DNA from: a plasmid | Strand: one strand, 5' to 3' | Length of the DNA stretch: 5,206 bases | Sequence record: NC_010930.1 | Part shown: positions 1 through 5,206 of the stretch, piece by piece | Layout of the letters: every line of letters begins with the position of its first letter | How positions within the stretch are numbered: position 1 is the stretch's first letter | Program-made: the position numbers and the translations under genes | The notes under the pieces: generated by a model | What the model was told of the DNA's origin: nothing | Database searches by the model: none | Seen by the model: only the letters and a program-made list of their open reading frames with translations

Positions 1-268
1 CGGTGGGAACGAGTTGAGCAAGTGCCGGAATCACCTTGGTGGGCAGGGTGAACACCTGAAGAGAAACGGAAGAGTCTACGCCAGAATCATCGATGTACTG
101 CACGGGAACGCGGTAGACCTGATGACCCTCGACGAGCTTGGCCTCGCCGCTGGGCTTGCCATCGGCGGTGTACCCCTGCTTGGGGTGCATGGTTGCCGGG
201 TCAATTTTCTGAGTCACTTGCAGGATACCGGCAAAACGGTCTGCGGCGACAGGGGGAACAGTAAACAT
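1..268 (-). CDS. Hypothetical protein, N-terminal part. ATG at 268, open to the left edge. Probably continues across a circular junction into 5206..5101 to give about 124 aa.
   Basis: Minus-strand translation from ATG 268..266 reads MFTVPPVAADRFAGILQVTQKIDPATMHPKQGYTADGKPSGEAKLVEGHQVYRVPVQYIDDSGVDSSVSLQVFTLPTKVIPALAQLVPT with no stop before position 1. A GGAAAGGA Shine-Dalgarno-like element lies 6-7 nt upstream on the minus strand (plus 276..283). Composition is protein-like. The listed plus ORF 14..307 is its antisense shadow. Confidence 0.55.
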   Translation of the reverse strand, partial: MFTVPPVAADRFAGILQVTQKIDPATMHPKQGYTADGKPSGEAKLVEGHQVYRVPVQYIDDSGVDSSVSLQVFTLPTKVIPALAQLVPT

Positions 269-313
269 TTTTTTCCTTTCCAGTTACGCTCTCTACCAAA
301 CAGATAGAGGAAT

Positions 314-329
314 CCCCGCTGACGCGGGG
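314..329. repeat. Short GC hairpin: CCCCGC, loop TGAC, GCGGGG.
   Basis: Perfect 6-bp inverted repeat with a 4-nt loop, read directly. It sits in the leader/promoter region of the minus-strand gene that starts at 268. Confidence 0.4.
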
Positions 330-349
330 TAAATGGCCGGGGCGCGGGA

Positions 350-405
350 TTGCACCCCCAGCAAGCTTCATATGTAATATTACATCAGTAATGGTACATA
401 GGTAA
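350..405. promoter_or_regulatory. Divergent promoter region with a perfect 14-bp palindrome, ATGTAATATTACAT (372..385), overlapping candidate -10 hexamers on both strands.
   Basis: Plus strand: TTGCAC (350..355), 17-nt spacer, TGTAAT (373..378), upstream of the ORF that starts at 435. Minus strand: TTACCT (revcomp of 400..405), 17-nt spacer, TAATAT (revcomp of 377..382), upstream of the gene that starts at 268. Both -10 candidates lie inside the palindrome, so it is a plausible operator. The -35 matches are weak. Confidence 0.35.
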
Positions 406-434
406 AATCACGGCGTGTTGTGTAAGATAAAGTC

Positions 435-896
435 ATGTCCACAGATAGAAAAAAGAACATCAGAGATAAGCAACTTCTCGATTCCGTCACCGAAGAACAA
501 ATCAATGAAGAAATGACAGAAATCAAAAAAGCACTTTTCCACCAAATACATCGTCACGGCAACAAGTTGGCCTCAGAAACAGACCTCGATACGTCACTTT
601 CCAAACTTCTACTGCTACGAAAACTCAGCAATGAACTAAACGATCTAGCTGAGATTGTCGCAGCTAGTGCCGTCAGCAGACATGTATCGCTAAGCAATAT
701 CGGAAGAGCCTACGGACTTGACCCCGCCAATGTGAAAAGAAAATTCAAAGACCTTGACGCCATCAACGCCGCCAAGATGAAATACTACGAGACCAAAGAG
801 CCAGTACCAGTAACAATCAACGGCAGAACAATCATGTTCGATAGAACATTCATTAGTGGAGAATACAAAGAAAAATCCCTCTGGCCACGCGAATAA
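435..896 (+). CDS. Hypothetical 153-aa protein with an HTH-like segment (VSLSNIGRAYGLDPANVKRKF). Markedly A/T-rich relative to the rest of the window.
   Basis: Clean ATG..TAA ORF. By eye it is far poorer in G+C than the flanks (not computed). Lys/Glu/Asn-rich and helical in character, with an HTH-like motif near residues 85-105. No family recognised. Weak SD (AAGATAAAG). A stable hairpin follows the stop. Confidence 0.6.
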   Translation: MSTDRKKNIRDKQLLDSVTEEQINEEMTEIKKALFHQIHRHGNKLASETDLDTSLSKLLLLRKLSNELNDLAEIVAASAVSRHVSLSNIGRAYGLDPANVKRKFKDLDAINAAKMKYYETKEPVPVTINGRTIMFDRTFISGEYKEKSLWPRE

Positions 897-904
897 ATGT
901 GCCT

Positions 905-927
905 GTGGGCGCATCGAGCGCCCACAA
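905..927 (+). terminator. GC-rich hairpin immediately after the stop of ORF 435..896: TGTGGGCGC, loop ATCGA, GCGCCCACA.
   Basis: Perfect 9-bp inverted repeat with a 5-nt loop starting 9 nt after TAA 894..896. No T-tract follows. Hairpins without a T-tract are common as terminators in high-GC Actinobacteria. Confidence 0.4.
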
Positions 928-1039
928 CCACTGTGCTGGGGTCCCCCTGCCCCCATCACTCGAAAGCTTCGAGGACGCAGGGGAAGTCACGGCCAAGAAT
1001 GCCGTCAATGGTGACGCATGCACTGGCCGGTGCCCGTAG

Positions 1040-1066
1040 GTCTTCCCGACGCGTTGTCGGGAAGAC
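1040..1066. repeat. Perfect 11-bp inverted repeat: GTCTTCCCGAC, loop GCGTT, GTCGGGAAGAC.
   Basis: Read directly. It lies in the 245-bp non-coding stretch between ORF 435..896 and the HTH gene that starts at 1142. Candidate operator, terminator or origin hairpin. Confidence 0.5.
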
Positions 1067-1141: not shown

Positions 1142-1663
1142 ATGGCAGCTAAGACATACAGCGTTGATGAACTTGCACATCTGACCGGCCTATCGGTGTC
1201 GGGTATCAAAAAAGCGATTGCGGAGAAACGTATCAAGGCTCGCAAGATCGGGCGTAGCTGGGCGATTGACCCGAGCGACCCGACCGTGCAGGGCTGGTTG
1301 ACCAAGGCCGATGTGGTAAAGTCCCCCGATGTTCAGGCCTTGACCGAGGAAATCAGCAAGCTTCGCCGTGAGAACGCGAATCTTGCCAAGCGCGTCCGTC
1401 AGGCCGAAGCCGGACAACGCAGGGCTGAGAGGGAAACCCGCCAGTTGGAGGCGGAGCTTGCGGAGGCCTACAAGTCCAGTACGGAGCAGGCGCATGAGAA
1501 CGCCCGGAAAATCTATGAGCTGTCTCATGAAGTCATCGAACAGGCGGCGCAGGAGAACACAAGGACATTGCTCAAGGTCGTGGGCTTGCTTGCCAATACC
1601 GAGAAGCCTATGCAGATTCTGTCAGGTCAAGTAGCGCCAGAGGAGGCGACACCGGAGGCGTAG
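1142..1663 (+). CDS. Excisionase-family (MerR-superfamily, HTH_17-like) DNA-binding protein with a C-terminal coiled-coil. 173 aa.
   Basis: The N-terminus YSVDELAHLTGLSVSGIKKAIAEKRIKARKIGRSWAIDPSD matches the excisionase-type HTH pattern (hydrophobic-x-E-x-A-x-x-L-G-[VL]-S, then k-i-G-r-x-w-x-i). Residues 65-140 show heptad-like E/R/A/Q/L periodicity (LTEEISKLRRENANLAKRVRQAEAG...). ATG..TAG is complete. Shadow ORFs 1190..1528(-) and 1368..1634(+) were discarded. Confidence 0.7.
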   Translation: MAAKTYSVDELAHLTGLSVSGIKKAIAEKRIKARKIGRSWAIDPSDPTVQGWLTKADVVKSPDVQALTEEISKLRRENANLAKRVRQAEAGQRRAERETRQLEAELAEAYKSSTEQAHENARKIYELSHEVIEQAAQENTRTLLKVVGLLANTEKPMQILSGQVAPEEATPEA

Positions 1664-3305
1664 CCTTTTCCGGTTGTTCAGCATTCCATTTGTCATCGAA
1701 CGGAACCGGCTTGGCAGTACGCGCGACGACCTTCATATCCTGGCGTAGGTCTTCCCATTGGTAGCGGATACCCTGTATCTCGGTTTTCTGACGTTTGGCC
1801 TTGCCTGCCTTTGTTCGGTCGAAGCTGATGTTCCAGAGTCCGTTATCGTCAAGAACCTGTGCTTTGTGGCCGGGCAGGAGTTCGCGGAGCTTGTCCCAGT
1901 CGTGGTCTTCGATGGCGTGTTTGGCCTGTGCGAGAATCTTCGGGTTGTGTTTCAACGCCTCGTCGTATGGTGCTGATTCGATTCGCCATGCCATGACGGC
2001 GCGTTGCGTCTGTTGCTCGATGATTTCATTATCGTTGAGGTCATCGATACCGAAGTGTTCCTTAAGTCCGGGCGACCAGCGTATGCATTGGCGACCTGAG
2101 GTGAAGGAGACGTATTCAATCCACTTCCGACGTCGTTCGCCAGCCGACATCTTCAACGGGCATTCATCGTCCAACAGCTGGAACGGGTTGATATGGGTAT
2201 CTCCGTCACCCTCGTGACCGTCTTTCACATCACCGCGCGCCATCTCGCCGGACACCTCCCATGTGTGAGAGTCTTCCGCCTTGTCGTCCTGAAACTTGCT
2301 GATGTAGAGCGCGATGACCTTGCCGTGGTCATCTACCCGTTGCAGATCCACTCCGTGGGCTTCGCTGGGTGTGATGACCCATTTGCGTTGCCCGTTGGCG
2401 GTCCTGCTTTCGTTCCACTCGTCGGCCACCTTATTCAGGTTCTCCGCCCAACGGGGGAACAGCCATGCGCGGAACCGTTCTAGCATGTCATCGTCCACCT
2501 TGGTTTCAGCGAACAGAAGCACGTGCAGGTGAGGGTGCCAGCCGTCCTCGTCGCCCAAGGTGATTTCGACGCTCTTGATATTGCCGATAAGTCCGAGCCG
2601 GTTTCGCCATTTGTCCCAAGGTTTGCCGCGAATGACCTTGCGGAAGCCGGAGAGCAGGGCGTCAAGGGTGAACGCCAATGGCATGGTGCCATCGTGCCTC
2701 AGCGTGAGGGTCATGAAGAGTATGCTTCCGCCGTTTTCCAAGTGCTTGTTGACCGCCGTCTGAATCTCGACCGAGCGGCGTTGGCGAATGGTGGCCGAGC
2801 AGGTCGGGCATGACCATATCGAGGAGCATTTGACCACACCGGCGTAGGAGCCACGGCCTGATTCGTTCAGCCTGAGTTCGGCGTGCCCGCCATGACGATA
2901 CCGGCGGTGTTCCGCAGCGACCTTGACTTTCACGCCTTTCGCGTATCCGTTGGCGCGTTGGCCGCAGTATGCAGGTCGTCGTACCTCGTCGTACACCCGT
3001 CGCATGTTCGGCTTCTTCTTGCCTGATTGTCCGGAGTCGATGAACGCTTGCGACCACAGCAGATTCTTACTTTTCCAACGTCGGATATAACGGCTGATTT
3101 CAGCGTTACGGTCGTACTTTTCACCGTTCTTAGCAGGGGGGGTTACGAATTTAGTATTATCCCTAGAGCCGCTTCGCGGCTTCGCGGCTTCGGACTGCGC
3201 GCCGGCTTGCGCCTCTGCTACGTCCGCGCCGCTATCCGGTGCGTCCGGTTTATGTGAAGACGTTACCCGCTCTTTGGGTGTCGTCCTCTGAGTTGCTATA
3301 CTCAT
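1608..3305 (-). CDS. rep: Rolling-circle replication initiator (Rep) of HUH superfamily I type, pIJ101 / pSAM2-RepSA-like. 565 aa from ATG 3305; the ORF track starts it at TTG 3323.
   Basis: Motif 1 FMTLTL is at nt 2717..2700. The HUH motif WHPHLHVLLF is at nt 2537..2523 for HPHLH. Motif 3 ALYISKFQDDK has Tyr at nt 2306..2304. The spacing between motifs (about 60-70 aa) is typical. A Cys cluster CSSIWSCPTC (nt 2828..2799) lies just upstream of motif 1. All internal plus and minus ORFs are shadows. Confidence 0.88.
   Translation of the reverse strand: MSIATQRTTPKERVTSSHKPDAPDSGADVAEAQAGAQSEAAKPRSGSRDNTKFVTPPAKNGEKYDRNAEISRYIRRWKSKNLLWSQAFIDSGQSGKKKPNMRRVYDEVRRPAYCGQRANGYAKGVKVKVAAEHRRYRHGGHAELRLNESGRGSYAGVVKCSSIWSCPTCSATIRQRRSVEIQTAVNKHLENGGSILFMTLTLRHDGTMPLAFTLDALLSGFRKVIRGKPWDKWRNRLGLIGNIKSVEITLGDEDGWHPHLHVLLFAETKVDDDMLERFRAWLFPRWAENLNKVADEWNESRTANGQRKWVITPSEAHGVDLQRVDDHGKVIALYISKFQDDKAEDSHTWEVSGEMARGDVKDGHEGDGDTHINPFQLLDDECPLKMSAGERRRKWIEYVSFTSGRQCIRWSPGLKEHFGIDDLNDNEIIEQQTQRAVMAWRIESAPYDEALKHNPKILAQAKHAIEDHDWDKLRELLPGHKAQVLDDNGLWNISFDRTKAGKAKRQKTEIQGIRYQWEDLRQDMKVVARTAKPVPFDDKWNAEQPEKATPPVSPPLALLDLTESA
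3274..3302 (+). promoter_or_regulatory. Candidate plus-strand promoter antisense to the rep start: TTGGGT (3274..3279), 17-nt spacer, extended -10 TGcTATACT (3294..3302).
   Basis: The hexamers and the TG extension are read directly. The predicted transcription start is near 3309, right at the rep start codon (3305..3303) on the other strand. Confidence 0.25.
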
Positions 3306-3308
3306 GGT

Positions 3309-3413
3309 TGTAACGACTTTCAAGTTATGGCCGATAGCGCGAAGTTTGGCGACAGGGCGCTATCAGCGAGCTTCAGATTCCCCGGGGTTCCAGCCCCGGG
3401 GTTTCTTCTTTCT
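3309..3413 (+). ncRNA. Candidate small antisense countertranscript (ctRNA) covering the rep translation-initiation region and leader.
   Basis: It would run from the candidate promoter above to the hairpin plus T-tract at 3380..3413, giving about 100 nt. It contains an internal 8-bp-stem hairpin, GATAGCGC (3333..3340) paired with GCGCTATC (3357..3364), with a 16-nt loop. The overlapping plus ORF 3304..3489 is not credible as coding. This architecture is typical of ctRNA copy control in rolling-circle plasmids. It is hypothetical here. Confidence 0.2.
3380..3413 (+). terminator. Intrinsic-terminator-like element on the plus strand: tandem palindromes CCCCGGGGTT-CCAG-CCCCGGGGTT, then TTTCTTCTTTCT.
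   Basis: Two self-complementary CCCCGGGG octamers (3380..3387, 3394..3401) can pair as an 8-bp stem with a 6-nt loop. A T-rich run follows on the plus strand only. The minus-strand side is A-rich upstream and not T-rich downstream, so it would not terminate tra-to-rep transcription efficiently. Confidence 0.4.
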
Positions 3414-3427
3414 ACTAAACCAACAGC

Positions 3428-4309
3428 CTAAACTACAGGCTTATTATTTGCAATCGCGTCAATGGCAGTCATCGCGTCGTTCTCGCTGATGTAGGCAAAC
3501 CGACACATGGCGGCCTGACCATTATCAAGGCCGATGACCGCGCCACCGGGTCGTGACGTTGGGATATCCAACGGGGAGGGCGAGCCATCAGGCAGATTGC
3601 CCAGCACGGCGCGTGCGGCCTCGGGGGTCGATATCTGGAAGCAGATACGTGCGCCGCAGTTGTCACGGAGCTGGCTTGGCAGGCAGTCGGTCGTGGGTTT
3701 CTGGGTGATGGCGAAGAGCAGGTATCCGGCAGACCGTCCCTTTCTCACGATGTTGGTGGCGGCACCGGTGATGTCCTGAGCCAAATCCCTGAGTTCCTTG
3801 ACGGGGCGACCATCATCGCTGGTCACTCCCTTGGGGTCGAAGTAGGTCTGGCATTCGTCAACGATGATGACTTCAAGCGGTGGCCTCTTATCCGGTGGAA
3901 GATTCCAGAAGTTACTTTCGCCGTAATTGGCTCGCATAGAGGCGGTTCGAGATTTCATATCACGATTGAGATTAAGGATTGCTTCATGTACAAGGTCGAT
4001 GTCATCACGAATGAACGTCGTGGCGGCGTTTTCCGCCCAAGTCCAGTCATCGCCGCCCTTGCCATCGATGATGTGCAGGTTGACCTGACCGGACAAGTAG
4101 AGCGCCAGCACGATAATCATCATGCCAGCGGTCTTGCCGCTTCCGGGTCTTCCACCCACCACAACGCCACTCTGGTTCCTGATGATGATGGACGCGGGGG
4201 AGCCGTCCTCAAGCAAGCCAAACGTAATGCGTCCGGCCACTGGGTCAAACGGCAGAAGCCGGAACTTTGATGGCTCCGGCTTCTGTTGGTGTTTCCATGG
4301 GAATCTCAT
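3428..4309 (-). CDS. tra: FtsK/SpoIIIE-family DNA translocase ATPase, TraSA/TraB-like conjugal dsDNA transfer protein. 294 aa from ATG 4309. It has no N-terminal transmembrane segment.
   Basis: Walker A GGRPGSGKT is at nt 4156..4130 and Walker B VIIVDE at nt 3871..3854. An FtsK-like motor segment follows (AITQKPT...RICFQ). The ORF track begins at TTG 4432, but ATG 4309 has a GGAG SD 7 nt upstream and forms an ATGA overlap with the stop of the upstream gene (4308..4306), so 4309 is preferred. Confidence 0.85.
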   Translation of the reverse strand: MRFPWKHQQKPEPSKFRLLPFDPVAGRITFGLLEDGSPASIIIRNQSGVVVGGRPGSGKTAGMMIIVLALYLSGQVNLHIIDGKGGDDWTWAENAATTFIRDDIDLVHEAILNLNRDMKSRTASMRANYGESNFWNLPPDKRPPLEVIIVDECQTYFDPKGVTSDDGRPVKELRDLAQDITGAATNIVRKGRSAGYLLFAITQKPTTDCLPSQLRDNCGARICFQISTPEAARAVLGNLPDGSPSPLDIPTSRPGGAVIGLDNGQAAMCRFAYISENDAMTAIDAIANNKPVV

Positions 4310-4899
4310 GCGAGGACTCCGATGACAGCGTTGTCGAGTGCGGTCTTGACCGTGGGACTGGTGGAGAGCTGAACGGTGAACAGTCCGGGGTTGGCCGTGT
4401 CCTCGCTGATGGCGAATGACCGGCACCGCCAAACCCTCGCGTTCTGGGTCAGCAGTTCCTTGAGGTGGTCGGGGTTCATGCCCGATTCACCGCCACCGTC
4501 GAACCTAACGAACGTGTCGCCGTCCCGCTTATAGGTGGTGGCCGGAATGGTCTTGGTCTTATCCTCGTCCGTGTAGATTTCGGCCTTGCGGAGCTTCGAG
4601 CAAGTGTTGACGCGATCGAAGCGTGCGACTATCCCCCAGAGGGGAACAAGGCCGACCAAGGCGTTGGACATGCCGGAGCGCAGGGGCTTCCAGAAGATTC
4701 CGGCAACAAGCAGGATTACGGCGACGGCGAGGGCGAGCCAGCCGATGATGTCGGCGTGGAGCATGAACGGCAGGACGATGACGGCCAGCCAGACAAGGGT
4801 AAGCCCCACGGTGCCGGAAACGTCCGGCTGGTTTTTCTTGGCTTCCTGCTTGGCCTGAGCCTTGGCAGTTTCCTGACCAATTTTCTTAAGTTCACTCAT
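4306..4899 (-). CDS. Membrane protein with two transmembrane helices (198 aa), translationally coupled to the FtsK-like ATPase. Candidate membrane anchor or Spd-like partner.
   Basis: ATG 4899 has a strong GAGGAGG SD 9 nt upstream. The N-terminal tail is Lys-rich. Two hydrophobic helices follow: TVGLTLVWLAVIVLPFMLHADI and IGWLALAVAVILLVAGIFW. A soluble C-terminal domain of about 110 aa comes next. The stop TGA 4308..4306 overlaps the tra ATG. Confidence 0.7.
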   Translation of the reverse strand: MSELKKIGQETAKAQAKQEAKKNQPDVSGTVGLTLVWLAVIVLPFMLHADIIGWLALAVAVILLVAGIFWKPLRSGMSNALVGLVPLWGIVARFDRVNTCSKLRKAEIYTDEDKTKTIPATTYKRDGDTFVRFDGGGESGMNPDHLKELLTQNARVWRCRSFAISEDTANPGLFTVQLSTSPTVKTALDNAVIGVLA

Positions 4900-5107
4900 G
4901 CCAATCGACCTCCTCAATCAGGTTGGACTCGATAAGGTGCTGGATAGCGGTGGAGCGAGTTTCCGCATAGCCAGCCGCGCAACGCTTCTGCACATAGGCA
5001 TCGAGGGTATCGACACTAATGGTGGGAAGCGTGATGGAGAGCCTACGACGGCGAGGCGGGAGAAGCTTCCGCAACTCCCTTGGTGAAACCTCCTGAAACT
5101 CAGTCAT
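4892..5107 (-). CDS. Small (71 aa) ribbon-helix-helix-like (CopG/Arc/MetJ-type) putative transcriptional regulator.
   Basis: From ATG 5107: MTEFQEVSPRELRKLLPPRRRRLSITLPTISVDTLDAYVQKRCAAGYAETRSTAIQHLIESNLIEEVDWHE. This fits a basic N-tail, a beta-strand (RLSITLP), helix A (VDTLDAYVQKR..GY) and an N-capped helix B (ETRSTAIQHLIE). The stop TGA 4894..4892 lies 5 nt inside the next gene. The alternative start ATG 5146 (84 aa) is less likely because its N-terminus is low-complexity and collides with the upstream frame. Confidence 0.5.
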   Translation of the reverse strand: MTEFQEVSPRELRKLLPPRRRRLSITLPTISVDTLDAYVQKRCAAGYAETRSTAIQHLIESNLIEEVDWHE

Positions 5108-5206
5108 CGAGCACCCCCGTGATGGAGTCCAGAACCTCGATGCCATCGGCGGTGAGGCTCCAAGCGATGCGCCCGTTGCGCACCCATGGCACCATGCGGA
5201 CGGTAC
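5101..5206 (-). CDS. C-terminal fragment of a protein entering from the right edge (...TVRMVPWVRNGRIAWSLTADGIEVLDSITGVLDD*). Probably the C-terminus of the gene that starts at 268 if the molecule is circular.
   Basis: This is the only protein-like open frame entering from the right edge. It ends at TGA 5103..5101, inside the GATGACTGA start/stop overlap with the next gene (ATG 5107). It is in phase with ORF 268..1 across the junction: pos 1 plus 5206, 5205 gives GGT. Confidence 0.4.

Follow-up and report, generated by a model that had tools for sequence, protein, structure and literature searches.

Several small plasmids of Streptomyces, namely pSVH1, pIJ101 and pSG5, combine a Rep of the Rep_1 family with an FtsK-like translocase, and carry neither a relaxase nor a type IV secretion system (T4SS). 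A core consisting of a rolling-circle Rep and an FtsK-like Tra protein is likewise typical of the pSAM2-type AICEs, whose TraSA is a short protein of ~306 aa. A Rep_1 rep also accompanies a gene with an FtsK/SpoIIIE domain on p1B146 of Corynebacterium tuberculostearicum (4.2 kb) and on the 4.4-kb plasmid of Streptomyces sp. NBC_01166, two replicons in the 4-5 kb range in which a ~130-aa ORF precedes the FtsK-like gene. In Streptomyces, TraB is made as one 772-aa chain, which has an N-terminal part of its own and recognises clt through its C-terminal domain (PMC4447253). FtsK-type conjugation has been tied to hyphal growth (PMC3429521), and AICEs were almost absent from the Bifidobacteriales in surveys of 2008-2012 (PMC3218068, PMC3429521). 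Within Bifidobacterium, the plasmids pCIBb1 (B. breve, NC_002133, 5,750 bp) and pASV479 (B. pseudolongum, NC_010877, 4,815 bp) share a backbone of a 124-aa-type ORF, a small ORF, a membrane protein, an FtsK-like ATPase whose gene overlaps the preceding one by 4 nt, and a Rep_1 rep. The ATPases of these two plasmids appear in database records as 'hypothetical' or 'AAA family ATPase', and no transfer test of the family was found in the searchable literature.

A circular plasmid of the pCIBb1/pASV479 family

The window, i.e. the whole stretch of 5,206 bases analyzed here, possesses the backbone and gene order of pCIBb1 and pASV479, and seven genes account for ~90% of its length:

1-268, minus strand: 5' part of a junction-spanning 124-aa ORF (ATG at 268), first gene of the conserved module
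5102-5206, minus strand: 3' part of the same ORF, in frame once the window ends are joined
4892-5107, minus strand: 71-aa probable ribbon-helix-helix (RHH) protein by weak matches; shares bases with the 5' end of the membrane gene
4306-4899, minus strand: 197-aa membrane partner, putative N-terminal half of a split translocase
3428-4309, minus strand: 293-aa TraB-like FtsK/SpoIIIE-fold motor ATPase, predicted from Pfam, AlphaFold2 (AF2), Foldseek and a family profile
1608-3305, minus strand: rep, 565-aa HUH rolling-circle initiator of the Rep_1 (pC194/pIJ101) family
1142-1663, plus strand: 173-aa DNA-binding protein of the HTH_17/excisionase type, with a long coiled coil, predicted from Pfam HTH_17
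435-896, plus strand: 153-aa ORF in a low-GC stretch (~43-45% versus ~57% elsewhere)

The window is a complete, circular and non-integrating plasmid of 5,206 bp. The 124-aa ORF remains in frame across the joined ends and aligns over the junction with its pCIBb1 counterpart, and the intact gene is called in independent, differently permuted contigs. Similarly, the two ends of a 5,347-base MEGAHIT contig overlap identically over 141 nt, leaving a unit of 5,206 bases, and the exact ATPase recurs on ~5.3-kb contigs with other permutations, which come from at least 37 index blocks of the contig collection. Pfam, PHROG and other family searches of the window genes recovered no match to integrase, relaxase or T4SS families. 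With neither an integrase nor an att site, the window represents a plasmid rather than an AICE. These observations agree with the original prediction, which had seen no relaxase or integrase and had proposed a non-integrating element.

The host is most likely a human-gut Bifidobacterium. A search of PLSDB found no DNA-level match to the window, and megaplasmids of B. longum match short stretches of it. At the protein level the ATPase is 63% identical to its pCIBb1 counterpart, the membrane protein 58% (ORF 4842-5414) and the first ORF 52%, and the corresponding values for pASV479 are 62%, 48% and 44%. The Reps are only 32-36% identical, and that of the window is longer (565 aa versus ~350-390 aa). 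The accessory genes also differ, with the HTH_17 coiled-coil protein and the low-GC 153-aa ORF in the window and ParA in pCIBb1. The plasmid is an additional member of the already sequenced pCIBb1/pASV479 family and not a new type of element, and because of this membership the pairing of Rep with an FtsK-like protein has precedent in the host group.

In the case of rep the longest ORF extends over 1608-3323, and the likely start is the ATG at 3305, the one also called in independent contigs. The original prediction had suggested Pfam searches for both main proteins, and both score above the respective cut-offs (for the ATPase see below), with Rep reaching 43.6 bits against Rep_1 (PF01446, E 3.3e-11, cut-off 33.2). 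Rep further matches phrog_11698 (E 1.3e-53) and, in BLASTP, pIJ101 Rep (E 3e-34), pSVH1 Rep (E 1.5e-26), which is likewise long at 605 aa, and pC194 RepA (E 6e-4). All 80 of the 80 Rep homologues in the database lie on small contigs, and nearly all contain Rep_1. A MAFFT alignment with pC194 RepA and the Reps of pIJ101, pSVH1, pCIBb1 and pASV479 places the following motifs, all on the minus strand:

2799-2828: Zn-finger-like CxxxxxCPxC (CSSIWSCPTC)
2700-2717: motif 1, FMTLTL
2514-2537: HUH motif, HPHLHVLL
2295-2306: catalytic Tyr motif, YISK

The three HUH motifs read earlier from the sequence are therefore genuine by alignment and by the Rep_1 match. Tyr334 of the window protein corresponds to Tyr214 of pC194, and Rep is an HUH initiator of the Rep_1 family with one catalytic Tyr. 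The Phe said to stand in place of a second Tyr in motif 3 is indeed present, four residues past Tyr334, but it has no special meaning, because this position varies in the family (I, W, T, D).

A TraB-like translocase split over two genes

The 124-aa ORF, the RHH-like protein, the membrane protein and the ATPase form a conserved four-gene module on the minus strand. The ATPase possesses both Walker motifs, encoded on the minus strand:

4130-4153: Walker A, GRPGSGKT
3854-3874: Walker B, EVIIVDE

It matches Pfam FtsK_SpoIIIE (PF01580) with 29 bits against a cut-off of 24, and its AF2 model (mean pLDDT 93.6) recovers TcpA, the FtsK motor and EccC as best PDB folds in Foldseek (E 3e-16 to 1e-11). 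A profile of the ATPase family scores pSVH1 TraB at 145 bits, TcpA at 77, FtsK at 65 and EccC at 42, with pIJ101 Tra a weak relative at 43 bits. NCBIfam plasmid_TraB is the commonest and strongest family match in 40 of the 40 aligned family members, and BLASTP of the window protein against pSVH1 TraB gives E 9e-22. These comparisons support the placement of the family in the FtsK clade nearest to the plasmid and AICE Tra proteins, in agreement with the original prediction. Streptomyces TraB is the nearest characterized relative of the motor. The NCBIfam TraB score of the window protein itself, however, is 32 bits, which lies far below the equivalog cut-off of 800 bits.

The earlier description of an FtsK/SpoIIIE motor of about 294 aa is correct as to its Walker motifs, Pfam family and, within one residue, its length (293 aa), but the protein is better viewed as one half of a split gene than as a single short motor. 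The start codon of the ATPase gene and the stop codon of the 197-aa membrane gene share bases (ATGA), an overlap kept in more than 10 relatives. The membrane partner has hydrophobic helices at about aa 28-69, followed by a soluble beta-beta-alpha-beta-beta domain. In hhalign comparisons with a full-length profile of 81 long homologues, which are single TraB-like proteins of 450-510 aa from other actinobacteria, the membrane partner family aligned with columns 50-200 (Prob 96.4%, E 1.3e-9) and the short ATPase family with columns 212-479 (Prob 100%). The two halves thus tile the long proteins collinearly and without overlap. The soluble domain of the membrane partner alone gave E 7e-5, versus 0.21 with a reversed control. 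The evidence for the homology of this N-terminal part comes from profile-profile comparison alone; HMMER recovered no fused relative of the membrane partner among 1.84 billion proteins, and hhalign found no match to the N-termini of pSVH1 TraB and pIJ101 Tra. The AF2 model of the partner is of low confidence (pLDDT 64), and its top three PDB folds are TcpA structures (E 0.04-0.07). Taken together, the 293-aa ATPase is the C-terminal half of a translocase distributed over two translationally coupled genes, and the 197-aa protein probably supplies the N-terminal half. In contrast, the translocase of the NBC_01166 plasmid is one fused protein of 477 aa; the FtsK-like proteins of this plasmid and of p1B146 are ~30-33% identical to the window motor.

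The 71-aa protein has only weak matches to the RHH part of a HicB-like antitoxin (E 0.058) and to a phrog transcriptional repressor (E 0.037), and is 41% identical to pCIBb1 ORF 29-196 (E 1e-6); it could be a regulator of the module or its DNA-binding partner. For the 124-aa ORF, searches of Pfam, PHROG and PADLOC recovered no family; its aa 8-115 align across the junction with pCIBb1 ORF 199-663 (E 1e-36), and it corresponds to ORF 3527-3916 of pASV479.

Possible DNA transfer and competing explanations

In favor of a role in transfer, the module occurs with at least three families of Rep, namely Rep_1, REP_ORF2-G2P and CRESS-like Viral_Rep. On long chromosome-like contigs it adjoins rep, an HTH_17 gene and a tyrosine integrase, an arrangement typical of AICEs, and a named Bifidobacterium pullorum genome has a fused-gene relative at its tmRNA gene. 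The relationship to pSAM2-type AICEs in the original prediction is borne out by these integrated relatives, which have either the full integrase / HTH_17 / rep / tra layout or the tmRNA site. The window itself differs in having a Rep_1 Rep and not one of the RepSA/REP_ORF2-G2P type.

The further comparison to a TraSA/TraB-like module of the Streptomyces type holds only in part. The profile is indeed nearest to TraB, but, besides the low equivalog score, the window motor ends directly after the motor domain, without the ~107-aa C-terminal part by which TraB recognizes clt. The window also has no GACCCGGA-type repeat array: a scan for a clt-like array of 8-bp repeats found none, while the same scan recovered the pSVH1 array directly after traB. 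Homologs of the Spd spread proteins and of the GntR-type Kor repressor are likewise absent from the window, and the presumed host is unicellular, whereas the TraB systems of Streptomyces operate in mycelial hosts. Because the TraB C-terminal domain, a clt array and Spd proteins are lacking, Streptomyces-type transfer of double-stranded DNA is no more than a reasonable inference.

TcpA of Clostridium perfringens pCW3 (PDB 6o1w-6o1z) suggests a different role, in which the ATPase and its membrane partner would form a TcpA-type coupling protein (T4CP), with Rep doubling as relaxase and single-stranded DNA being handed to the T4SS of a co-resident conjugative element, making the plasmid mobilizable. 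By sequence and fold TcpA is the best solved-structure match of the motor (Foldseek E 2.8e-16, TM ~0.7; profile E 1.6e-20), and the fold of the membrane partner matches the N-terminal subdomain of TcpA best, albeit weakly. Rolling-circle Reps can act as relaxases in ICE-mediated mobilization in Firmicutes; moreover, the presumed host is unicellular, bifidobacteria have conjugative megaplasmids like pMP7017, and the stretches matched by B. longum megaplasmids point in the same direction. However, the ranking of PDB folds is biased, because no TraB motor structure appeared among the matches, and the family profile places pSVH1 TraB well above TcpA (145 versus 77 bits), which is only ~20% identical to the window motor. 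TcpA also works with a relaxase and a Tcp T4SS-like apparatus, both absent from the window, and the uniform preference of the family for NCBIfam TraB and the T4SS-free layout of the integrated relatives further speak against such a role, which we regard as rather unlikely. That the pair instead serves plasmid maintenance, by clearing copies from the closing septum or resolving multimers in the manner of chromosomal FtsK, is improbable. The motor does have the FtsK fold, and sequence does not demonstrate intercellular transfer, but the family scores TraB above FtsK, neither an FtsK gamma domain nor a Xer or dif partner is found, several sister plasmids have a separate ParA partition gene beside the module, and integrated elements, for which segregation is unnecessary, contain the module as well.

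An HUH Rep, a P-loop ATPase and a membrane protein on ~5 kb are also reminiscent of the filamentous phages of Gram-positive bacteria, and the ATPase of a small inovirus-like or other capsid-less virus-like replicon might be a Zot/pI-type morphogenesis ATPase. Weak Zot (PF05707) matches in some distant long homologs, a weak Zot-like PHROG match (E 0.003) and the presence of relatives in IMG/VR would fit this. Yet the window protein has no Pfam Zot match, in fused homologs the membrane part precedes the ATPase, which is the order of FtsK and TraB and the reverse of pI/Zot, there is neither a small coat-like transmembrane ORF nor free coding space, the gene content of the IMG/VR relative L019 is limited to an integrase, the ATPase and a CRESS-like Rep, structural genes being absent, and no DNA-level match was recovered among 50,697 phage records; a viral origin is thus very improbable. 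We give even less credence to an anti-phage defense role, to which PADLOC matches to mad8 (E 1.6e-16, 58.7 bits) and SspH (E 4.6e-10), both FtsK-type ATPases, and restriction-modification cargo beside the module in several relatives could point. MADS is an eight-gene operon (bioRxiv 10.1101/2023.03.30.534895), and the window lacks its other components and also any methylase or nuclease; the restriction-modification genes vary between relatives like cargo, while rep and integrase genes are the constant partners of the ATPase.

The explanation we consider probable as a whole is that of a circular rolling-circle Bifidobacterium plasmid of the pCIBb1/pASV479 family with a split TraB-like DNA pump. 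Rep would nick the double-strand origin and the plasmid would replicate via single-stranded circles, with the structured region 897-1141 (see below) possibly serving as single-strand origin. The two translocase halves might assemble into a membrane-bound hexameric pump, working like TraB/TraSA of pSVH1, pIJ101 and pSAM2, that sends plasmid DNA, probably double-stranded, into a neighboring cell without a relaxase or T4SS. Because the C-terminal recognition domain of TraB is missing, DNA recognition would fall to another module protein, such as the RHH-like or 124-aa protein, or to a cis site such as the hairpin at 4253-4285.

Non-coding elements and accessory genes

Four non-coding or structured elements were delineated:

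4253-4285: CAGAAGCCGGA / TCCGGCTTCTG, a perfect 11-bp inverted repeat that folds into a 13-bp hairpin within ATPase codons 9-19
3380-3401: intergenic hairpin CCCCGGGGTTCCAGCCCCGGGG, lying past the ATPase stop and ahead of the rep start, with a T-run after it on the plus strand
269-434: divergent intergenic region upstream of the module, with hairpin CCCCGCTGACGCGGGG and motif GGCGCGGGATTGCACCCC
897-1141: non-coding region of 245 nt with five to six stem-loops

Both hairpins, that inside the ATPase gene and the 22-nt intergenic one, are shared with pCIBb1. The former recurs at this position in pCIBb1, in five metagenomic relatives and in a B. olomucense contig; the inner stems vary among these sequences, and G-U pairs occur on the sense strand. 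Its stability exceeds that of synonymous-codon resamplings in 7 of 12 relatives, and in the window none of 300 resamplings was as stable (z = -3.0); it is a candidate mRNA element, clt-like site or origin element. The intergenic hairpin, terminator-like by sequence scan, is an identical 22-mer at the equivalent pCIBb1 site (L001 3935-3956), despite flanking proteins of only 36-63% identity; pASV479 and the B. olomucense contig do not have it. The region 269-434, which contains a promoter-like site on the plus strand (379-408), is a probable promoter/operator; motif GGCGCGGGATTGCACCCC is common to the window, pCIBb1 and the B. olomucense contig, and most Logan contigs have a variant with a 62-bp insertion that duplicates hairpin CCCCGCTGACGCGGGG.

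The region 897-1141 contains a perfect 11-bp inverted repeat (1040-1066) and an 18-nt repeat (1072-1121). When folded as single-stranded DNA it is more stable than all of 200 shuffles (z = -6.1 for the plus and -6.6 for the minus strand), suggesting a candidate single-strand and/or double-strand origin; the double-strand origin was not located in the plasmid.

The 173-aa gene and rep converge, with an overlap of 56 bp at the 3' end of rep; the encoded 173-aa protein has an HTH_17 match of 30.5 bits (cut-off 27) and a TIGR01764 match at the cut-off. It is an accessory module outside the conserved backbone, and in the sister plasmid L054 a ParA module takes the place of the window stretch 1067-1869. 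The 153-aa ORF, for which family searches recovered no match, is kept in L054.

Rep and the proposed two-gene translocase

The replication and transfer functions predicted for this plasmid center on a set of minus-strand genes, listed here by position in the window:

1608-3305, minus strand: rep, 565 aa (longest ORF 1608-3323, with the likely ATG at 3305)
3428-4309, minus strand: ATPase gene, 293 aa, FtsK_SpoIIIE
4306-4899, minus strand: membrane protein gene, 197 aa
4892-5107, minus strand: RHH-like protein gene, 71 aa

Sequence profile analysis of Rep recovered the Pfam Rep_1 family (PF01446; 43.6 bits against a cut-off of 33.2, E = 3.3e-11), and independent contigs yielded both the same family call and, with a gene caller, the same length of 565 aa. 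An alignment that took in RepA of pC194 and the Reps of pIJ101 and pSVH1 (Streptomyces), pCIBb1 (Bifidobacterium breve, NC_002133), pASV479 (B. pseudolongum, NC_010877) and p1B146 (Corynebacterium tuberculostearicum) placed the motifs CSSIWSCPTC, FMTLTL, HPHLHVLL and YISK in register with those of the family. The latter three lie opposite FLTLTT, NPHFHVLI and Y214-SGK of pC194, with Tyr334 aligned to Tyr214, and the pIJ101 and pSVH1 Reps fall into the same register. The three HUH motifs proposed in the original prediction were all recovered in this comparison, which had been set beforehand as the one on which that assignment could fail. The Phe that it had read as replacing a second Tyr is indeed present four residues past the catalytic Tyr, but at a position that varies across the family, and no meaning is attached to it. 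Rep can hence be classified, on its motifs and profile match, as a member of the Rep_1 (pC194/pUB110/pIJ101) group of HUH rolling-circle initiators. Exact copies of CTTGATA, a nick-site type sequence, occur in the window solely inside coding regions; comparison with the relatives revealed no nick motif shared outside genes, and the double-strand origin was not located in the window.

The ATPase shows a Walker A motif (GRPGSGKT), a Walker B motif (EVIIVDE) and a match to Pfam FtsK_SpoIIIE (PF01580; 29 bits, cut-off 24). Its AlphaFold2 model is confident (pLDDT 93.6) and displays an FtsK-type fold, with the conjugative coupling protein TcpA, the FtsK motor and EccC as top PDB fold matches. For the placement of this motor within the larger superfamily, a profile of 40 members of the ATPase family was scored against characterized proteins at equal database size.

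Scores of characterized proteins against the ATPase-family profile
Translocase of the 4.4-kb plasmid of Streptomyces sp. NBC_01166: 179 bits
p1B146 translocase: 162 bits
pSVH1 TraB: 145 bits
TcpA: 77 bits
FtsK: 65 bits
pIJ101 Tra: 43 bits
EccC: 42 bits

By these profile scores the family is nearer to characterized TraB than to chromosomal FtsK, the T7SS proteins EccC/EssC or the T4CP-like TcpA. Placement in a non-transfer FtsK clade, named in advance as the outcome that would speak against a transfer motor, did not occur (145 bits for TraB as against 65 for FtsK). The NCBIfam plasmid_TraB model was the commonest and strongest family match in all 40 members, albeit far under its equivalog cut-off; the window ATPase itself scored 32 bits against NF041214 (cut-off 800) in a match limited to residues 174-236, and so falls short of an equivalog. 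The original prediction had read the sequence correctly, and where homology is concerned its interpretation stands.

For the shortness of this motor, put at only about 294 aa in the original prediction, a split gene is the likely basis. Homologs at about 40% identity in other actinobacteria, encoded on comparable small contigs, are single proteins of 450-510 aa; their named sources include Propionibacterium, Leucobacter, Jiangella and Microbacterium, the protein of the last being called 'TraB protein'. Upstream of the ATPase lies a gene for a 197-aa protein that combines membrane helices with a soluble beta-beta-alpha-beta-beta domain; the stop codon of this gene and the start codon of the ATPase overlap as ATGA. 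As BLASTP of this protein against the long homologs yielded a single marginal match in the transmembrane region, profile-profile comparison (hhalign) was needed, and a full-length profile of 81 long homologs was used. The membrane-protein family aligned with columns 50-200 of this profile (Prob 96.4%, E = 1.3e-9) and the short ATPase family with columns 212-479 (Prob 100%), so that the two tile it collinearly and free of overlap. The soluble domain of the 197-aa protein aligns by itself too (E = 7e-5, versus 0.21 for the reversed control). Weak support for the split comes from the AlphaFold2 model of this protein, which is of low confidence (pLDDT 64) and whose three top PDB fold matches are all TcpA (E = 0.04-0.07). 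No membrane-associating N-terminal region is present on the 293-aa polypeptide itself, and it appears that this region is supplied by the separate, overlapping 197-aa gene. That the motor is one half of a split gene and the 197-aa protein the other is, on the strength of these alignments, well supported but not proven; the motor assignment of the original prediction stands, and the short length would reflect the split. A HMMER profile search of 1.84 billion proteins recovered no fused relative of the membrane protein, returning nine short relatives and one spurious Ig-repeat match, and hhalign of its profile against the N-termini of pSVH1 TraB, pIJ101 Tra and the p1B146 and Streptomyces 4.4-kb plasmid translocases gave no signal.

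A closed circle of the pCIBb1/pASV479 family

The window is a complete circle in the plasmid state. A minus-strand ORF with its start at 268 extends past base 1 and, re-entering at 5206, stays in frame up to its stop at 5102. The 124-aa protein that it encodes can be aligned over the junction to a pCIBb1 ORF (52% identity, E = 1e-36) and also to one of pASV479; no Pfam, PHROG or PADLOC family was found for it. A MEGAHIT contig with the same genes comprises 5,347 bases with an identical terminal overlap of 141 bases, which gives a unit of 5,206 bases, as long as the window itself. The exact 293-aa protein recurs in at least 37 index blocks, on ~5.3-kb contigs with different permutations, and every contig carrying it is about 5.3 kb or shorter. 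Seven genes occupy nearly the whole window, and family searches with them returned no integrase, relaxase or T4SS match, in agreement with the earlier description of an element devoid of relaxase and integrase. Its non-integrating character, likewise proposed there, is borne out by the closed 5,206-bp circle, and the plasmid is accordingly not itself an AICE. An Rfam scan of the window gave nothing at E values up to 1.

In pCIBb1 each of the five minus-strand genes has its best match, and the gene order is conserved (E from 1e-6 to 2e-140), with identities of 52% for the 124-aa ORF, 41% for the RHH-like ORF, 58% for the membrane protein, 63% for the ATPase and 36% for Rep. pASV479 matches four of the five, and about ten metagenomic plasmids with sizes of 4-8 kb share the layout. 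At the DNA level megablast found no match in PLSDB beyond trivial hits and none in phage records. From the shared gene order and protein homology, the window is a new member of the pCIBb1/pASV479 family, which has been in the databases for many years, rather than a new type of system; the family ATPase is annotated there merely as 'hypothetical protein' or 'AAA family ATPase'. The host is likely to be Bifidobacterium, as judged from the taxonomy of the named close relatives (pCIBb1, pASV479, a B. olomucense contig and a B. breve plasmid protein), all of which belong to this genus; human gut metagenomes are the source of two related contigs.

Rep has diverged far more rapidly than the module: in a sister plasmid (L054, 5,653 bp) the membrane protein and ATPase are 98% identical and Rep 70%. 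L054 shares 97-99% identity with window 1-1066 and 86% with 1870-5206. In place of the intervening 1067-1869, where the window has an HTH_17 coiled-coil gene and the rep 3' end, it has a ParA module; in the window these two genes are convergent and overlap by 56 bp (1608-1663).

In most public copies the unit is 5,268 bp rather than 5,206 bp (L004 3147-3208, and the other Logan contigs L005-L010). The extra 62 bp, located upstream of the module in the divergent intergenic region (window ~312-331), consist of a second copy of a hairpin, ATCCCCGCTGACGCGGGGTA, and a further 42 nt. A 153-aa ORF at 435-896 has a GC content of ~43-45% against ~57% for the rest of the plasmid and lacks a family match; it may be recently acquired cargo.

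Departures from canonical TraB systems and the genomic contexts of the module

Similarity to pSVH1 TraB stops at about residue 665 of 772, where the window ATPase ends, so that the latter is devoid of the last ~107 residues of TraB. The TraB C-terminus recognizes clt (PMC4447253). No clt-type array was detected in the window, either as clustered 8-mers or as a 7-10-mer array above a first-order Markov background, while the same scan recovered GACCCGGA four times directly after pSVH1 traB as a positive control. Homologs of Spd or of GntR-type Kor are also absent from the window. Given that the C-terminal domain, the clt array and Spd/Kor are all lacking, the ATPase is best regarded from its sequence as TraB-like and not as a strict member of the TraB family.

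The sole candidate cis sites in place of clt are two conserved hairpins:

4253-4285: hairpin in the ATPase gene, 13 bp, codons 9-19, where the ATPase protein is poorly conserved
3380-3401: intergenic hairpin between ATPase and rep, CCCCGGGGTTCCAGCCCCGGGG, 22 nt

The first occurs at the same place in pCIBb1 (L001 4790-4820), the B. olomucense contig (L011 4614-4652) and five metagenomic plasmids (among them L050, L052, L055 and L056). Its inner stems differ among the relatives and have G-U pairs on the sense strand; the 3' arm is formed by FRL codons and the 5' arm by variable codons. In stability it surpasses synonymous-codon resamplings of the same peptide in seven of 12 relatives (z = -3.0 and 0/300 for the window), all seven being Rep_1 plasmids, and is not significant in AICE-type relatives. 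It is a candidate for an mRNA control element, a recognition site or an origin element. The second hairpin is identical in pCIBb1 (L001 3935-3956), and a 12-mer, AAGTTTGGCGAC (window 3342-3353), is common to pCIBb1 (L001 3894-3905) and the B. olomucense contig (L011 5527-5538), even though the proteins neighboring CCCCGGGGTTCCAGCCCCGGGG and AAGTTTGGCGAC are just 36-67% identical. The CCCCGGGGTTCCAGCCCCGGGG hairpin is terminator-like on the plus strand, though no plus-strand gene ends there. As single-stranded DNA the non-coding stretch 897-1141 folds far better than its shuffles (z of about -6) and is a candidate single-strand origin.

The same module is also found on contigs of 25-55 kb, where it adjoins genes for a tyrosine integrase (417 aa), an HTH_17 protein (55 aa) and a Rep of the REP_ORF2-G2P type. 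In this setting the membrane protein is 199-215 aa long and the ATPase 288-323 aa, the latter sharing 52-57% identity with that of the window; a 123-148-aa ORF and, optionally, a small one complete the module. These elements are flanked by housekeeping-type genes, with restriction-modification cargo alongside (type ISP or MmeI-like in L046 and L048). Three AICE-like elements were delimited:

L046 6653-11431 (chromosome-like contig): transfer module, REP_ORF2-G2P rep, tyrosine integrase, 55-aa HTH_17 protein
L048 6788-11542 (chromosome-like contig): transfer module, REP_ORF2-G2P rep, tyrosine integrase, 55-aa HTH_17 protein
L012 3354-10218 (B. pullorum genome): transfer module, REP_ORF2-G2P rep, tyrosine integrase; at the tmRNA gene

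In B. pullorum the relative is a fused protein of 485 aa, encoded beside rep and integrase directly downstream of the tmRNA gene. A further fused protein, FtsK-like and of 476 aa, is encoded in an IMG/VR contig (L019 1-4026, IMGVR_UViG_7000000204_000009) together with a tyrosine integrase, a CRESS-type Rep (Viral_Rep and RNA_helicase/superfamily-3-type domains) and two small ORFs only; though catalogued as viral, it resembles a minimal integrative element more than a virus. The module context matches the AICE layout as reviewed (PMC2440964). The module is found in combination with Reps of several unrelated families, an integrase being present in some cases and absent in others, as would be expected if it served transfer. 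Surveys from 2011-2012 found AICEs to be nearly absent from Bifidobacteriales and tied FtsK-type transfer to hyphal growth (PMC3218068, PMC3429521). In a plasmid relative (L051 4895-6477) that has the full module, the usual place of rep is taken by two ORFs of 248 and 278 aa, unannotated and without a Pfam match, which may be an undescribed replication module.

Potential mechanism and competing interpretations

The best-supported reading combines a rolling-circle Rep with a two-piece TraB-like pump. Rep would replicate the plasmid via the rolling-circle route, and the pump would export plasmid DNA into a neighboring cell without a relaxase or T4SS, possibly assisted by the RHH-like and 124-aa proteins. 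The gene identities are shown by the sequence; transfer as such, and the form in which the DNA would move, are what we infer. More tentatively, and with the balance of probability leaning against it, such a pump, lacking the known clt-binding domain, might move DNA between unicellular gut bifidobacteria independently of T4SS and relaxase; widespread 5-kb plasmids and integrase-bearing AICE-like islands would both be driven by the one four-gene module, and the hairpin in the first motor codons would act as a recognition or control site. If true, this would overturn the view of FtsK-type conjugation as an adaptation to hyphal growth that is near-absent outside Actinomycetales, and the system would provide a test of Streptomyces-type double-stranded DNA conjugation in non-mycelial bacteria, elements of this type having been judged almost lacking in Bifidobacteriales by surveys of 2008-2012. 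Bifidobacteria are important gut commensals and probiotics, whose genetic manipulation is difficult. A self-moving 5-kb plasmid with one ATPase-driven pump would explain the spread of small plasmids and of the related chromosomal islands, some with restriction-modification cargo, and would offer a very compact transfer module for vector building; without transfer, the element would be an ordinary cryptic rolling-circle plasmid. What is new here is the closed circle, the split translocase, the unexplained conserved hairpin, and the presence of the four-gene module in AICE-like islands too, among them the one in the B. pullorum genome.

The main rival, which we consider rather improbable, is a TcpA-like coupling pair operating with Rep as relaxase and a helper T4SS. 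TcpA is the best fold match of the motor and the weak top match of the membrane protein; in profile scores the ATPase family is closer to TraB than to TcpA. Less probably still, the FtsK-like pair might serve in plasmid maintenance, against which stand the separate ParA genes of sister plasmids and the existence of integrated relatives. An inovirus-like replicon was considered given a weak Zot-like PHROG match of the window ATPase (E = 0.003) and rejected, as the domain order is wrong, no coat-like ORF is present, the ATPase has no match to PF05707 (Zot) and there is no phage DNA match. Similarly, a defense ATPase of the MADS or Ssp type was rejected: the ATPase matches PADLOC mad8 (E = 1.6e-16, over nearly the full 314-position model) and SspH, but the other window proteins gave no meaningful PADLOC match and no further defense component is present in the window. 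MADS is an eight-gene operon (bioRxiv 10.1101/2023.03.30.534895), and a complete Ssp system would have SspFGH plus a modification module. The mad8 match reflects a shared fold, and together with that to SspH it implies that some defense systems use a similarly short FtsK-type ATPase.
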